A program made the translations under genes and the position numbers. The notes beneath the pieces were generated by a model, which was not told the origin of the DNA, did not search any database, and saw nothing but the letters and a program-made list of their open reading frames with translations. Below, in pieces: positions 38,048-46,287 of a DNA stretch of 64,000 nt (its first letter is position 1; each line of letters begins with the position of its first letter). Origin of the DNA: Candidatus Pacearchaeota archaeon (GTDB lineage: Archaea > Nanobdellota > Nanobdellia > Pacearchaeales > GW2011-AR1); the NCBI GenBank assembly GCA_018304105.1, contig JAGVWX010000019.1, positions 65,411-129,410 of the forward strand, read 5' to 3'.

Positions 38048-38450
38048 ATGATCCCGCTGGCTTCGAATCAAAGATTCTCGCTCGTTCGTCTGCTTACACA
38101 TCCAAACGAGGGATCTGAAGCCTAAACTTTTTAGAAAAAAGTTTTGGCGCATCAAAAACTATAATTGGATTTGCTTCGCAAATCTTGGTTTCCGTAGGAA
38201 CAAACAGCAGGATTATAATATTTCGCTTTGCTCAATATTATTAATGATCCCGCTAAGCAAAATTGCTTAGCAATTTTCCATTCGTTCGTCTGCTAAAGCA
38301 TCCAAACGAGGGATTTGAAATACAAACCCCTTTAGAAAAGGTGTTTCTATGAGTTCCCCAAACTACAATAGTCCGACAGGCTTGTCGGAAGTTCACAAGT
38401 CGCTCAGCGACTTAGTTGGGATTCTACGAATCCCAATATGATCCCGCTGG
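38048..38450 (-). repeat. Three direct copies of tRNA-Ile 3' terminus (atgatcccgct[gg]) at 38048, 38244, 38438
   Basis: Spacing 196 and 194 bp. The two non-tRNA units share the core tcgttcgtctgct....catccaaacgagggatytgaa (38083-38119, 38281-38320). Region packed with perfect 7-9 bp hairpins. Confidence 0.8.
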
Positions 38451-38513
38451 GATTTGAACCCAGGACCTCCGCCTTATCAGAGCGGCGCTCTAACCAGACT
38501 GAGCTACGGAATC
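38439..38513 (-). tRNA. tRNA-Ile (anticodon GAT)
   Basis: GATTCCG TA GCTC AGTCTGGTTA GAGC G CCGCT CTGATAA GGCGG AGGTC CTGGG TTCAAAT CCCAG CGGGATC A; full cloverleaf, no CCA. Confidence 0.95.
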
Positions 38514-38579
38514 GTTTAGCAAAGTGTGGTTAGCAAGACTCTTTCAAGAGCGCACTTAACCAGACTGAGCTATGGAATC
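38514..38579 (-). other. tRNA-Ile 5'-half-like leader element
   Basis: GATTCCATAGCTCAGTCTGGTTA (22/23 identical to the tRNA 5' end) + AGTGCG CTCT-TGAA-AGAG TCTTGCTAACCACAC TTTGCTAAAC. Confidence 0.85.
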
Positions 38580-38602
38580 ATGTTAATGAAAAAAGATAAG
38601 GC

Positions 38603-38610
38603 TTTTATAA
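38603..38610 (-). promoter_or_regulatory. TATA box (TTTATAAAA on minus strand)
   Basis: 24-31 nt upstream of the first nt of the leader copy (38579). Confidence 0.6.
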
Positions 38611-38630
38611 ACGTTTTCCTAAGGTAAAAA

Positions 38631-39068
38631 ATGGAAAATCGGCAATGGGTTATGAATGTTTTGGTTTTATTGACGGTAATTGAAGTTGTACTTATTGGTT
38701 TTTCATCTTATAAAACTGCCACTTCGACAGAAGGTTTTTGCGTTGTTGGCCAGGCAAATGGGGGATGCGATTCTGTGCAAAGTTCAGTTTATAGCGCTTT
38801 TCTTGGCGTGAAATTAAGTTATATGGGATTATTTTCTTTTTTAGTTTTGCTTGTTGTTTTAATTCGAGATATTAGAAAGAAAAGAATTTCTGATTTGTTT
38901 GTTGGTTTTGCTTTGGTTGGATTTTTGTTCTCTTCGTATCTGATTTACATTCAGCTTTTTGTGCTGAAGCAGATTTGCACGACGTGCATGATGGCTGATG
39001 GAATCGCAATATTAATTTTCTTTGTGAGTTTAATTGCGAGGAAGAAAGCGCCGTTGGTCTATCGGTAA
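38631..39068 (+). CDS. VKOR-family (vitamin K epoxide reductase-like) membrane thiol oxidoreductase
   Basis: 4 TM, loop Cys pair (CVVGQANGGC) and CTTC (CxxC) in a TM helix; last 21 nt overlap tRNA-Gly. Confidence 0.6.
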   Translation: MENRQWVMNVLVLLTVIEVVLIGFSSYKTATSTEGFCVVGQANGGCDSVQSSVYSAFLGVKLSYMGLFSFLVLLVVLIRDIRKKRISDLFVGFALVGFLFSSYLIYIQLFVLKQICTTCMMADGIAILIFFVSLIARKKAPLVYR

Positions 39069-44164: not shown

Positions 44165-44725
44165 CTCTGATGTAGTAGCTACTATTCGGTTCTAATTAAA
44201 TTTTACGGGAGGTGAAAATGGAAAAGGAACTGATAGTTAGCAGTGGTGCCGTCGGAGAAAGTAACTTTCACATTCAGCTGACACCAGCTTACCGAAGACC
44301 AATTTTTGAAAATGAGCAAACAGCTGAGTTGACGTTTGGTTACATTCTGGAAAAATTGTCTGAGCTAAAAGTTGTAATTGTCGCTTACAATTATGGGCCA
44401 GATCATTTGCATTTGTTTGTTGCAAATGTGAGATTTGTCAGCGAAGTAGAACTTGTCAGACAAATCAAAGGTTACAGCTCTTTCAAGATGCGAAGGCACT
44501 TTAGTTATCTTTTCGAAGATAAACTTTGGGGAGATAAGTTTTGGAGTGAGGGGCATTTCTATCGCAGCGTCGGTGCTGTGAACAAAGAGACGATGAAGCA
44601 CTACATCGAAGATTGTCAGGACAAGCATTGGGAAAAAATTGAAAGGCCAAAGTTTGTCGACTTATCTCAAAAGAGACTTGTTGATTTTTCGTCCTAAAAC
44701 GCTCGGGGCTTTAGCCCCGAGTAGT
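44165..44725 (+). mobile_element. IS200-like element or domesticated Y1 transposase locus (boundaries approximate)
   Basis: Perfect palindrome tagtagctacta (44173-44184) upstream and hairpin ctcggggc-ttta-gccccgag (44702-44721) downstream of tnpA. Confidence 0.55.
44212..44697 (+). CDS. tnpA: IS200/IS605-family Y1 (HUH) transposase TnpA
   Basis: DHLHLFV (HUH), IKGYSSFKMRRHF, FWSEGHFYRSVG...ETMKHYIE; probable ATG 44218 after RBS gggaggtg. Confidence 0.8.
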   Translation: MKMEKELIVSSGAVGESNFHIQLTPAYRRPIFENEQTAELTFGYILEKLSELKVVIVAYNYGPDHLHLFVANVRFVSEVELVRQIKGYSSFKMRRHFSYLFEDKLWGDKFWSEGHFYRSVGAVNKETMKHYIEDCQDKHWEKIERPKFVDLSQKRLVDFSS

Positions 44726-46059: not shown

Positions 46060-46103
46060 GGTTTTAATTAGGTAACTTGGTTAATAAGTTTTTGGTAGGT
46101 AAT

Positions 46104-46111
46104 TTTAAAAA
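46104..46111 (+). promoter_or_regulatory. TATA box (TTTTAAAA)
   Basis: 24-31 nt upstream of the first nt of the leader copy (46135). Confidence 0.6.
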
Positions 46112-46134: not shown

Positions 46135-46212
46135 GGCCCCGTAGCTCAGTCTGGTTAAGTCCGCTCTCGGCAGAGAGTCTTGGAAACCACACCTCGCTAG
46201 GAATGCCATGAA
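46135..46212 (+). other. tRNA-Lys 5'-half-like leader element
   Basis: GGCCCCGTAGCTCAGTCTGGTTA (22/23 identical to the tRNA 5' end) + AGTCCG CTCTC-GGCA-GAGAG TCTTGGAAACCACAC CTCGCTAGGAATGCCATGAA. Confidence 0.85.
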
Positions 46213-46287
46213 GGCCCCGTAGCTCAGCCTGGTTAGAGCACTGGACTCTTAATCCAGGTGTCGCGGGTTCAATTCCCGTCGGGGCCG
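46213..46287 (+). tRNA. tRNA-Lys (anticodon CTT)
   Basis: GGCCCCG TA GCTC AGCCTGGTTA GAGC A CTGGA CTCTTAA TCCAG GTGTC GCGGG TTCAATT CCCGT CGGGGCC G. Confidence 0.95.

Follow-up and report, generated by a model that had tools for sequence, protein, structure and literature searches.

Duplicated and inverted tRNA 5' ends in the leaders of tRNA genes of Pacearchaeota and related archaea

The tRNA-Ile(GAT) gene located in the window (the whole stretch of 64,000 nucleotides that was analysed) is preceded by a 66-nt leader which begins with a second, nearly exact copy of the 5' end of this very tRNA, and the question arises whether such a leader is a functional part of the precursor or only a trace of the way in which it was formed. 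The preliminary description of this locus placed a copy of the first 23 nucleotides of tRNA-Ile, identical at 22 of them, at 38579-38557 of the minus strand, and reported the sequence AGTGCG-CTCT-TGAA-AGAG-TCTTGCTAACCACAC behind it and a TATA element in front of it. Our results agree with all three statements. The minus strand at these positions reads GATTCCATAGCTCAGTCTGGTTA, and the 22/23 match to tRNA-Ile nt 1-23 (38513-38491) leaves a single difference, A for G at position 7; the TATA-like TTTATAAAA occupies 38610-38602 and starts 31 nt before the copy. The tRNA-Gly(CCC) gene at 39048 indeed has no such 5' copy, as had been stated, and no match to the 23-nt copy was found in the dinucleotide-shuffled window with up to three mismatches allowed. 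The tRNA-Ile unit consists of the following elements.

38602..38610, minus strand: TATA-box-like element of the tRNA-Ile unit (read from the sequence; consensus only)
38557..38579, minus strand: sense copy of tRNA-Ile nt 1-23 with A7 for G7 (sequence match), spanning the acceptor 5' strand, U8 A9, the D-stem 5' strand and the D-loop
38532..38556, minus strand: apical part of the leader hairpin (fold), comprising the AGTGCG linker, the stem GCTCT/AGAGT with the loop TGAA, and then CTTGCT
38517..38531, minus strand: antisense arm AACCACACTTTGCTA (fold), predicted to pair with UGGUU, AGU and UAGC of the copy
38514..38516, minus strand: linker AAC between the hairpin and tRNA +1 (sequence and fold)
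38439..38513, minus strand: functional tRNA-Ile(GAT) gene (ARAGORN; Rfam tRNA, 71.2 bits)

A feature absent from the preliminary description is that AACCACAC..GCTA is antisense to TAGC..TGGTT of the copy, which indicates that the leader forms a single long, irregular hairpin with a short linker behind it. A 78-nt leader (46135-46212) precedes the tRNA-Lys(CTT) gene, which starts at 46213 of the plus strand, and begins with GGCCCCGTAGCTCAGTCTGGTTA, identical to the tRNA-Lys 5' end at 22 of 23 positions. The two leaders share AGTSCGCTCT, AGAGTCTTG, AACCACAC and GCTA, and the pattern AGAGTCTTGNNAACCACAC has exactly two matches, one in each of them, with 0.10 expected when up to three mismatches are tolerated. 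The elements of the tRNA-Lys unit are listed below.

46103..46111, plus strand: TATA-box-like element TTTTAAAAA of the tRNA-Lys unit, 32 nt before the copy (read from the sequence)
46135..46157, plus strand: sense copy of tRNA-Lys nt 1-23 (22/23; U16 versus C16 in the tRNA)
46158..46184, plus strand: apical part of the leader hairpin (fold), comprising AGTCCG, the stem CTCTC/GAGAG with the loop GGCA, and then TCTTGGA
46185..46199, plus strand: antisense arm AACCACACCTCGCTA (fold and copy/arm comparison)
46200..46212, plus strand: linker GGAATGCCATGAA (fold), a partial anti-acceptor whose GG..GCC is predicted to pair with GGC.CC of the copy
46213..46287, plus strand: functional tRNA-Lys(CTT) gene (ARAGORN; Rfam tRNA, 70.3 bits)

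Predicted folds of the Ile and Lys leaders both have z = -2.3, and the G27-C47 pair in the apical stem of the former corresponds to C-G in the latter, which is a compensatory change.

The sharing of this architecture by two loci had been taken to argue for a function or a specific mechanism, and the absence of further instances in the clade had been named as the outcome that would refute it. The abundance of further instances supports the argument, as about 60 further loci were found in related archaea. The scan of species-representative genomes gave 73 loci, 55 of them from DPANN archaea, and 7 additional loci were found on metagenome contigs. The set analysed here comprises 55 leaders (53 from scan loci and the two of the window) of 54-84 nt, and its conservation is wide: the leaders come from about 50 species genomes of Woesearchaeota, Pacearchaeota, and other "Nanoarchaeota". 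The further loci could be found only with patterns looser than the exact leader core; exact patterns of the leader core of the window had no match in species-representative genomes or viral contigs and, the two known loci excluded, none in metagenomes. The leader core AAAGTTCTAACGAACAAACCA is nevertheless identical in several species despite linkers and promoter regions that cannot be aligned. The covariance model built from the leaders, an analysis that had been proposed earlier, scored the two leaders of the window at 41.5 and 33.6 bits, and in the rest of the window only the 5' parts of the tRNAs themselves match at that level. Among Rfam families only tRNA reached the gathering score in the window, which is the only level at which the Lys leader was scanned, and at E <= 10 (38300-38700) nothing covers the Ile leader. 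No description of such leaders was found in the literature searched.

The acceptor-specific match reported for the two loci of the window turned out to be a general property. The acceptor copy is identical to the cognate tRNA at 7/7 positions in 46 of 55 leaders, across 16 distinct acceptor sequences, at 6/7 in eight and at 5/7 in one, as compared to a mean of 4.5/7 in the control with non-cognate tRNAs; this figure is unbiased because positions 1-9 were left out of the search pattern. The apical stems vary in sequence, yet stay hairpins in 55/55 leaders. Linkers, in other loci longer and often A/C-rich, remain single-stranded in almost every leader fold, and so an unstructured segment of the kind associated with RNase P is present by the inferred cleavage site. 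At many loci the arm is complementary to the acceptor strand of the copy as well as to its D-region, and many leaders pair the acceptor copy within the leader itself.

The paired positions covary. Since RNAalifold gave no structure on the MAFFT alignment, an explicit structure was supplied for testing the pairs; the covariation score was 0.214 versus 0.131 in shuffles, was reached by none of 500 shuffles, and collapses once the partner columns are shifted. Double changes number 7-17 in the pairs of the apical stem, and the arm variant AACC/GACC tracks the D-loop variant GGTTA/GGTCA (pair 22-57: UA in 45, CG in 8, unpaired in 1). The partner of the antisense arm is the copy and not the tRNA. 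In nine distinct leaders of the window type, position 16 of the copy is always complementary to R of the arm (C-G in six, U-A in three), and at the Lys locus of the window, where copy and tRNA disagree, the A of the arm is complementary to U16 of the copy but not to C16 of the real tRNA. At all nine loci with discordant acceptors, in turn, it is the strand of the tRNA itself that forms 7/7 pairs with the 3' strand, while the copy pairs worse in seven of them (5-6 pairs) and equally well in two. A non-complementary spot opposite D-loop positions 16-17 is common to the families (G>T 48, G>C 14), and this shared mismatch favours common descent over repeated fresh formation. The folds of the sense and antisense strands of the leaders do not differ significantly (means of -20.5 vs. 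-21.0 kcal/mol, Wilcoxon p = 0.35), and C>T substitutions in the arm (28) are hardly more numerous than G>A (19). Given such equal stability of the strands and such near parity, selection at the RNA level cannot be separated from a palindrome kept at the DNA level.

Of the leaders inspected, those with another leader unit or masked sequence in front of them set aside, most have BRE/TATA-like motifs (aaC(C)TTTAAATA, TTTTAAA, TTTATAAA) at a comparable distance. The TATA lies at -31 to -35 from the copy in Lys loci and at -37 to -43 in Ile(TAT) loci, and the latter spacing indicates that transcription does not always start at the first base of the copy. The possibility of an internal promoter in the linker was rejected, as the leaders inspected have no TATA at -24 to -32 of tRNA +1. 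The leader is probably transcribed; its start site is inferred from the TATA consensus alone, and there are no expression data. In tRNAs without the module the TATA lies 31-40 nt from +1, which implies leaders of 0-9 nt, so that a 5' processing activity is needed anyway. According to a published survey, all the archaeal genomes it covered have RNase P protein genes, and HARP, the protein-only form, is missing from every DPANN genome (PMC6380272). Neither genes nor RNA of RNase P turned up in the window or in the 288 kb around 36 related loci, a result that is uninformative at about 8 kb per genome.

Many loci, including that of tRNA-Ile described here, have mirror-image 3' modules that terminate with a duplicate of the 3' end of the tRNA; at most loci the 3' copy is absent. 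The following two were distinguished downstream of tRNA-Ile.

38245..38438, minus strand: 3' module A (sequence comparison), with an anti-T-like hairpin (TTGGGATTC..GAATCCCAA), further hairpins, hairpin L, a T-loop copy TTCAAATCCC at 38319-38310, hairpin K at 38314-38282, and AGCGGGATCA at 38254-38245, which duplicates the 3' acceptor strand of the tRNA together with A73
38049..38244, minus strand: 3' module B, which repeats module A in tandem in a diverged form (sequence comparison), with TTCAGATCCC at 38119-38110, hairpin K identical to that of module A at 38114-38082, and AGCGGGATCA at 38058-38049 followed by TTTT

The Ile 3' modules thus form a tandem pair of units about 195 nt long, both of which have the 3'-terminal 10 nt of the tRNA at their end. 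Hairpin K of the window differs from that of locus L083 by three flipped pairs, i.e., in a compensatory manner. No run of five or more T separates tRNA-Ile from module A, from which we infer that they are likely co-transcribed.

The explanation that we favour, tentatively and without quite regarding it as probable, is that of a conserved, self-sequestering pre-tRNA leader that arose by direct and inverted duplication and is removed by RNase P, its exact role being unknown. The precursor would run from the promoter through the sense copy of nt 1-23, the variable hairpin, the antisense arm, and the single-stranded linker to the real tRNA. The copy and the arm are predicted to form an irregularly paired rod, roughly 15-25 bp long, and, when paired, could not interfere with the downstream tRNA, which would fold normally and would be freed by RNase P at the linker/tRNA junction; this removal, like the role, is inferred. 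The module may have originated by a direct-plus-inverted duplication of the 5' end of the gene. Unequal crossing-over between the direct repeats would then keep the copy similar to the tRNA, as may be seen from tandem arrays of identical or nearly identical 5' leader units (five in L019, two each in L011 and L070). Probably the copy is also under selection, since an arm left without a partner by the decay of the copy would be free to invade the real tRNA. The leader might serve as a self-contained 5' domain of the precursor, providing the primary transcript with a stable and harmless handle. This proposal is weak, as it explains why the copy and the arm need each other but not why the pair exists. 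Ordinary leaders removed by RNase P similarly occupy the stretch between the promoter and +1 and have a single-stranded linker at the cleavage site, often with U at -1, but they are short and unconserved, whereas the leaders described here have 54-84 nt, contain a tRNA copy with its antisense arm and are conserved across species.

An alternative that appears unlikely, though far from negligible, is a by-product at the DNA level without any function of the RNA. Fold-back (template-switch) errors of repair or replication at highly transcribed tRNA genes would make direct-inverted-direct triplets, unequal crossing-over and arm-to-arm gene conversion would keep the copies alike, and the transcribed part would simply be cut off. 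Such an origin is consistent with the direct-inverted-direct layout on both sides of the tRNA, with the tandem arrays of identical or similar units (the three mentioned above and L076, which has three tandem units on the 3' side), with the lack of strand asymmetry in fold energy and G-U content, and with partial tRNA duplications devoid of an antisense arm in a few small-genome bacteria (L009, L077, and L014). It does not readily account, however, for the conservation of the apical hairpin and the arm, including the loop sequence, next to flanks saturated with change, for compensatory changes in apical stems and in hairpin K, or for the mismatch opposite positions 16-17 that the families have in common. 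Moreover, recombination between the 23-nt repeats would precisely delete the module, yet dozens of species retain it at their orthologous Lys and Ile loci. A role other than that of a sequestered leader, namely, as a conformational switch, as an outer processing stem or as a functional small RNA derived from the leader hairpin, which would control or quality-check tRNA maturation, seems to us distinctly unlikely. In a switch, the copy, the arm, the tRNA 5' segment, and the tRNA 3' segment would pair 1:2 and 3:4 or else 2:3 and 1:4, in an attenuator-like manner; the complementarity for both states is present by construction, but an input signal is not evident. In a processing stem, the outer 5' and 3' acceptor copies would close the whole precursor, like the processing stem of rRNA. 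Minimum-energy folds of precursors do close with an outer acceptor helix of 6-7 bp at 10/10 loci with both outer copies (an eleventh, L076, was left out: it is cut at the contig start, and its 5' end there is the tRNA itself), the precursor fold of the window Ile locus has z = -8.1, and no T-run occurs between the tRNA and the 3' module in the Ile loci of the window and L083. On the other hand, this support is a thermodynamic prediction only, and copies of acceptor strands can always pair trivially; A7 of the window is uncompensated in the outer 3' copies, and the stem is at odds with the internal pairing of the acceptor copy in many leaders and with the lack of the 3' copy at most loci. The likeness to trp-type attenuators and rRNA processing stems, in which, respectively, four segments pair alternatively and distant flanks enclose the mature RNA, is an analogy only, as there is no terminator or leader peptide here, and the flanks are copies of the ends of the mature RNA. 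A further conjecture, which we regard as rather doubtful, assumes a nested pseudo-tRNA shell in archaea of the Woesearchaeota/Pacearchaeota type, with end duplicates at the transcript ends and internal duplicates neutralised by antisense arms, which would gate or check maturation or release functional hairpin RNAs. If true, it would represent a precursor logic undescribed in any domain of life.

It is improbable that the repeats are attL/attR cores, i.e., scars or miniature remnants of integrative elements with att-site duplications, like those of decayed cis-mobilisable elements that have accumulated by accretion at tRNA genes. Certainly, tRNA genes are classical integration sites, the Ile 3' modules with their tandem units ending in the tRNA 3' terminus could be read in this way, and a gene of an IS200-like transposase lies 1.5 kb from tRNA-Lys. 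Partial tRNA fragments have been reported in archaea (PMC3218864), and attL/attR partial tRNA duplications resemble the structures described here in direct repeats beside an intact gene and in tandem accretion on the 3' side. However, the repeats enclose no element; the 5' spacers, non-coding and no longer than 43-55 nt, consist of hairpins of the tRNA's own sequence in inverted orientation, and their architecture, with its compensatory changes, is conserved across many species at orthologous loci. The ORFs neighbouring the leaders encode VKOR-family, GGDEF, Toprim-domain, and ATP-cone-domain proteins and the IS200-like transposase, with no integrase among them, and for these reasons att-site duplication was rejected for the 5' leaders. 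Besides, IS200/IS605 elements are not known to make target duplications. Very improbable is the possibility that the outer copy is the true 5' exon, with the rest of the leader and tRNA nt 1-23 as a D-loop intron, or that, as in Nanoarchaeum equitans, transcription initiation sets the 5' end with no involvement of RNase P. The distance of the TATA fits a start at the first base of the copy in the window and in Lys loci, the window encodes tRNA ligase RtcB and archease, and the 3' acceptor strand has the copy as its partner in the minimum-energy fold of the leader with tRNA-Ile. Nanoarchaeum equitans, of a related lineage, is reported to make leaderless tRNAs (PMC3491384, PMC10100707). Its genes, too, have a TATA set for a start at or near a tRNA 5' end sequence; nevertheless, the promoter distance there is fixed and RNase P is lacking, whereas here the spacing varies from -31 to -43, exceeding at some loci (37-43 nt) what a start at the copy would require, and the TATA faces a duplicate, with the real tRNA 54-84 nt further on. 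A canonical bulge-helix-bulge (BHB) in register is impossible, because the end of the intron equals the end of the exon and the 4-bp central helix must therefore be a palindrome. By sequence reasoning AGCU (nt 9-12) is the sole candidate, and the helices that should flank it do not form. The two 3-nt bulges of the Lys leader, which lie 4 bp apart, each 5' of a strand of the central helix, are mirrored relative to the canonical motif and are absent from most leaders. The arm, moreover, covaries with the copy, and at every locus where copy and tRNA disagree the inner strand, which is the conserved one, is fully paired with the 3' strand. A canonical BHB intron or an alternative 5' exon was rejected on account of the palindrome requirement, the mirrored bulges and the conservation of the inner copy.

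Several other candidates were also rejected. BHB introns and split or permuted genes likewise involve tRNA pieces paired with complementary flanks, but the tRNAs described here are contiguous, with full scores of 71.2 and 70.3 bits (68-73 bits in intron-less orthologous tRNAs) and neither a canonical BHB nor an in-register splice. An endonuclease cut at the leader/tRNA junction would need a half motif in which -6 to -3 pair with nt 72-75, and the sequences do not fit. Formation of +1 by RNase Z cutting a tRNA-like leader is contradicted by the lack of an acceptor partner in the Ile leader and by a spacing that is off by at least 1 nt elsewhere. A box C/D guide acting in cis, of the type of the Haloferax tRNA-Trp intron, lacks the C box RUGAUGA and has a variable guide-to-box spacing; CUGA is present in many arms solely as the complement of UCAG within a regular helix. 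The boxes of H/ACA or kink-turn motifs are absent, and the GTT/AAC core order is reversed relative to that of an integron attC-like site.

For annotation, the copies can mislead tRNA finders and pass for pseudogenes or att sites, and the diagnostic variants A7 (Ile) and U16 (Lys) reveal which copy enters the mature tRNA. The tRNA genes of DPANN archaea, which like those of Crenarchaeota are often disrupted, are already known to be unusual, with split genes, many introns, and, in Nanoarchaeum, leaderless genes. If the self-sequestering leader is functional, DPANN archaea would reuse the ends of the tRNA itself, in sense and antisense orientation, as flanking domains in a conserved precursor design. 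This would bear on tRNA maturation in reduced genomes, as well as on the breakage and duplication of tRNA genes, the centre of the fold-back duplication being near the anticodon region, close to the split sites.

Two tRNA genes of the window, both of which score as full tRNAs, are preceded by a leader (the stretch between promoter and tRNA) that starts with a duplicate of the tRNA 5' end, referred to here as the copy:

38439-38513, minus strand: tRNA-Ile(GAT)
38579-38557, minus strand: copy of tRNA-Ile nt 1-23, 22/23 identical (A7 vs. G7 in the tRNA)
46213-46287, plus strand: tRNA-Lys(CTT)
46135-46157, plus strand: copy of tRNA-Lys nt 1-23, 22/23 identical (U16 vs. C16 in the tRNA)

The match at tRNA-Ile, reported in the preliminary description, holds, as only position 7 differs and shuffled versions of the window contain no comparable match to either gene. 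The leaders (66 nt in Ile, 78 nt in Lys) share AGTSCGCTCT, AGAGTCTTG, AACCACAC, and GCTA, and a TATA-like box starts 31 nt (Ile) or 32 nt (Lys) 5' of the copy; all that the preliminary description lists is present, and tRNA-Gly(CCC) at 39048 indeed lacks a 5' copy. What had been overlooked is that the conserved AACCACAC..GCTA segment (the arm) is antisense to the copy, and therefore the whole leader is predicted to fold into one elongated, irregular hairpin capped by a small stem-loop (z = -2.3 for both leaders). In this fold, the arm binds the D-loop copy through AACCA (opposite UGGUU) and U8-A9-G10-C11 through GCUA. The S of AGTSCG pairs with the base following TCTTG; this pair is G-C in Ile but C-G in Lys, which is a compensatory change.

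The hairpin of the Lys leader contains, at 46157-46184, two bulges of 3 nt, AAG and UCU, with exactly 4 bp between them, located on the sides opposite to those of the canonical bulge-helix-bulge. A similar arrangement may exist in one related locus (L082) but is absent from the other leader families inspected. The divergent VKOR-family ORF (38631-39068) lies only 51 nt away from the Ile leader, and its end overlaps the start of tRNA-Gly by 21 nt. At 44212-44697 on the plus strand, 1.5 kb 5' of the tRNA-Lys leader, is an IS200-like Y1 transposase gene (Pfam Y1_Tnp, E = 1.4e-22), and no connection between this gene and the leaders was found. The window, which belongs to a 131-kb JGI metagenome contig, also encodes CDC48, RtcB, and archease, and its tRNA genes are located behind TATA-type promoter motifs, which identifies its organism as archaeal; this organism recurs in many metagenome samples.

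A scan for pairs of D-arm 5' parts 40-70 nt apart in 185,579 species-representative genomes, which covered one D-arm type only and imposed identity of the D region, identified 73 loci, 18 bacterial and 55 archaeal, the latter in Woesearchaeota, Pacearchaeota, "Nanoarchaeota", Diapherotrites, Iainarchaeum, or genomes labelled only "archaeon". Fifty-three leaders from these archaeal loci and the two of the window make up the analysed set of 55 leaders, mostly of tRNA-Lys(CTT or TTT) and tRNA-Ile(GAT or TAT), with lengths of 54-84 nt (median 71). Their common order of parts is a TATA-like box (where the upstream sequence is neither another leader unit nor masked), the copy of tRNA nt 1-23, a hairpin of small size, the arm (e.g., AAACCAYYCUGAG, antisense of CUCAGYCUGGUU), an often A/C-rich linker, and the tRNA. 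In many leaders the arm runs on into an anti-acceptor stretch with many G-U pairs, so that the acceptor copy is also paired. A covariance model made from 54 leaders, with approximate E-values, scores those of the window at 41.5 and 33.6 bits and the bacterial loci at no more than 25 bits. A second scan, of metagenomes, added seven members of the subfamily of the window, defined by AACCACRCYTYGCT. The wider search proposed in the preliminary description has thus brought further instances in archaeal genomes and metagenomes. Exact-pattern scans with the leader core of the window itself gave no match; since the final metagenome scan missed the window's own JGI contig despite two exact pattern matches in the window, negative scan results are weak evidence. 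Among the fetched sequences, the tRNA-Ile locus nearest to that of the window (L022, L083) comes from a Pacearchaeota genome of the same aquifer. The literature searched, which did not include most subscription journals, yielded no description of leaders of this kind.

As the search pattern fixed the D-arm only, positions 1-9 provide an unbiased test of constraint. The acceptor copy agrees with its tRNA at 7/7 positions in 46 of the 55 leaders, at 6/7 in eight, and at 5/7 in one, across 16 different acceptor sequences, while non-cognate tRNAs average 4.5/7. GGUUA or GGUCA in the D-loop tracks AACC or GACC in the arm (U-A in 45 leaders, C-G in 8, unpaired in 1). Pairs of the apical stem, a region in which the MAFFT alignment is rough, show 7-17 double changes, and the covariation score exceeds that of 500/500 shuffles and drops when partner columns are slid. 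Opposite D-loop positions 16-17, U or C replaces G in most arms, and this shared departure from perfect complementarity speaks for common descent and against repeated formation de novo. Several species have the same core AAAGTTCTAACGAACAAACCA even though their linkers and promoter regions are too different to align.

The inner sequence, i.e., the tRNA's own 5' end, is inferred to be the functional one, because at all nine loci where acceptor copy and tRNA differ, the 3' strand finds a 7/7 partner in the strand of the tRNA itself; with the outer copy it would form 5-6 pairs in seven of them and 7 in two. The partner of the arm is the copy and not the tRNA, as position 16 of the copy is complementary to the arm in 9/9 distinct leaders of the window subfamily (C-G in six, U-A in three), and at the Lys locus of the window the arm's A fits U16 of the copy, while the tRNA has C16.

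Many leader-bearing loci also carry a mirror-image module after the tRNA, in which a segment antisense to the T-loop (GGATTTGAAC) is followed by hairpins and by a copy of the last 16-24 nt of the tRNA; at times the downstream flank is repeated too. Two diverged tandem modules of about 195 nt each follow tRNA-Ile of the window:

38438-38245, minus strand: first 3' module
38244-38049, minus strand: second 3' module

Each contains a T-loop copy (TTCAAATCCC or TTCAGATCCC) and the 33-nt hairpin K (ATCCCTCGTTTGGATGnnTnAGCAGACGAACGA), which includes a GA/GA internal loop and has the same sequence in both modules, and ends in AGCGGGATCA, the tRNA 3' acceptor strand plus A73. Rfam gave no match in the part scanned (38300 upward). 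The orthologous Pacearchaeota tRNA-Ile locus has the same 3' layout, and between hairpin K of the window (38282-38314) and that of L083 (~1420-1540) three consecutive pairs are flipped (U-A to A-U, U-A to A-U, and U-G to C-G), which is strong compensatory change for an element whose function is unknown. As neither Ile locus has a T-run between tRNA and module, the modules are probably co-transcribed with the tRNA, although no expression data are available. In minimum-energy folds of whole precursors, which are predictions only, the outer acceptor strands pair in 10/10 loci with both outer copies, and the Ile precursor of the window reaches z = -8.1. At L076 (146-264) there are three 3' units, the repeat unit being a 43-nt spacer together with the final 16 nt of tRNA-Lys; counting the one in the tRNA itself, there are three occurrences of the 16-nt sequence, with a 59-nt period.

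The phenomenon extends beyond the searched D-arm type. In the window's own species, tRNA-Ser(CGA) (L007, 15871-16068, ~5 kb beyond the window start) carries a module with a 14-nt 5'-end copy 54 nt upstream, a short hairpin, and an A-rich linker. An exact 24-nt copy of its T-arm and acceptor 3' end terminates 62 nt downstream, with degenerate similarity reaching further, followed by T6. Degenerate versions occur at tRNA-Glu in some genomes, while Gly(CCC), Met, and some Glu genes have no module and TATA boxes 31-40 nt from +1. On two contigs of one Pacearchaeota genome (L049, L052), the leaders of tRNA-Ile(TAT), which has a 46-nt intron, and tRNA-Ile(GAT) agree in 70 of 71 nt, in contrast to the diverged 3' modules, a pattern that points to joint duplication of leader and gene or to gene conversion between the leaders. 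Long introns (15-101 nt) are present in many leader-bearing genes (L013, L017, L018, L019, L029, L036-L038, L049-L051, and others), several of which ARAGORN mislabels (tRNA-Stop, Ser, Thr, Ala), and automated tRNA annotation is therefore unreliable in this lineage. In a Saccharibacteria, a Patescibacteria, and an actinobacterial locus (L009, L077, L014), tRNA-Ile is flanked by 27-39-nt 5'-end and 39-40-nt 3'-end copies without a clear antisense arm, which may reflect the same duplication process in a simpler form.

Five tandem 63-nt leader units of two sequence variants separate promoter and tRNA-Lys in L019 (4818-5131), and two units each occupy this position in L011 (5668-5808) and L070 (885-1013); unequal crossing-over between direct repeats is therefore active, and alone it would be enough to maintain the similarity of copy and tRNA. 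The L019 variants alternate, and one of them breaks the apical stem. Such arrays, together with the absence of strand asymmetry, fit a neutral palindrome kept by recombination, but the conserved loops and compensatory changes do not fit this explanation. Integration scars would loosely account for the 3' tandem modules but not for the 43-55-nt hairpin spacers on the 5' side. A conformational switch or an outer processing stem remains possible. An exon/intron reading was rejected on bulge-helix-bulge geometry, register, and the identity of the conserved copy.

In the absence of expression data, we favour a conserved, self-sequestering pre-tRNA leader. Transcription would begin either with the copy or a few bases 5' of it; the copy would form a rod with the arm, leaving the linker single-stranded and the real tRNA free to fold; and RNase P would cut at tRNA +1. 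The cleavage step is supported by a survey in which all archaeal genomes examined had genes for RNase P proteins and no DPANN genome had protein-only HARP (PMC6380272), the RNase P status of this organism resting on literature; in addition, tRNAs without the module have promoters at varying distances, which implies the existence of a 5' processing activity. A direct-plus-inverted duplication of the gene end, with its centre near the anticodon region, best accounts for the origin of the leader; after the copy, similarity of the Ile leader of the window to the D-stem and anticodon-stem strand of its tRNA is still visible (AGTGC-GCTCT vs. GAGCGCCGCTCT). While the role of the rod is not established and the retention of the pair over its deletion is not explained, the matching of copy and arm is explicable: the two must stay matched because each would neutralise the other.
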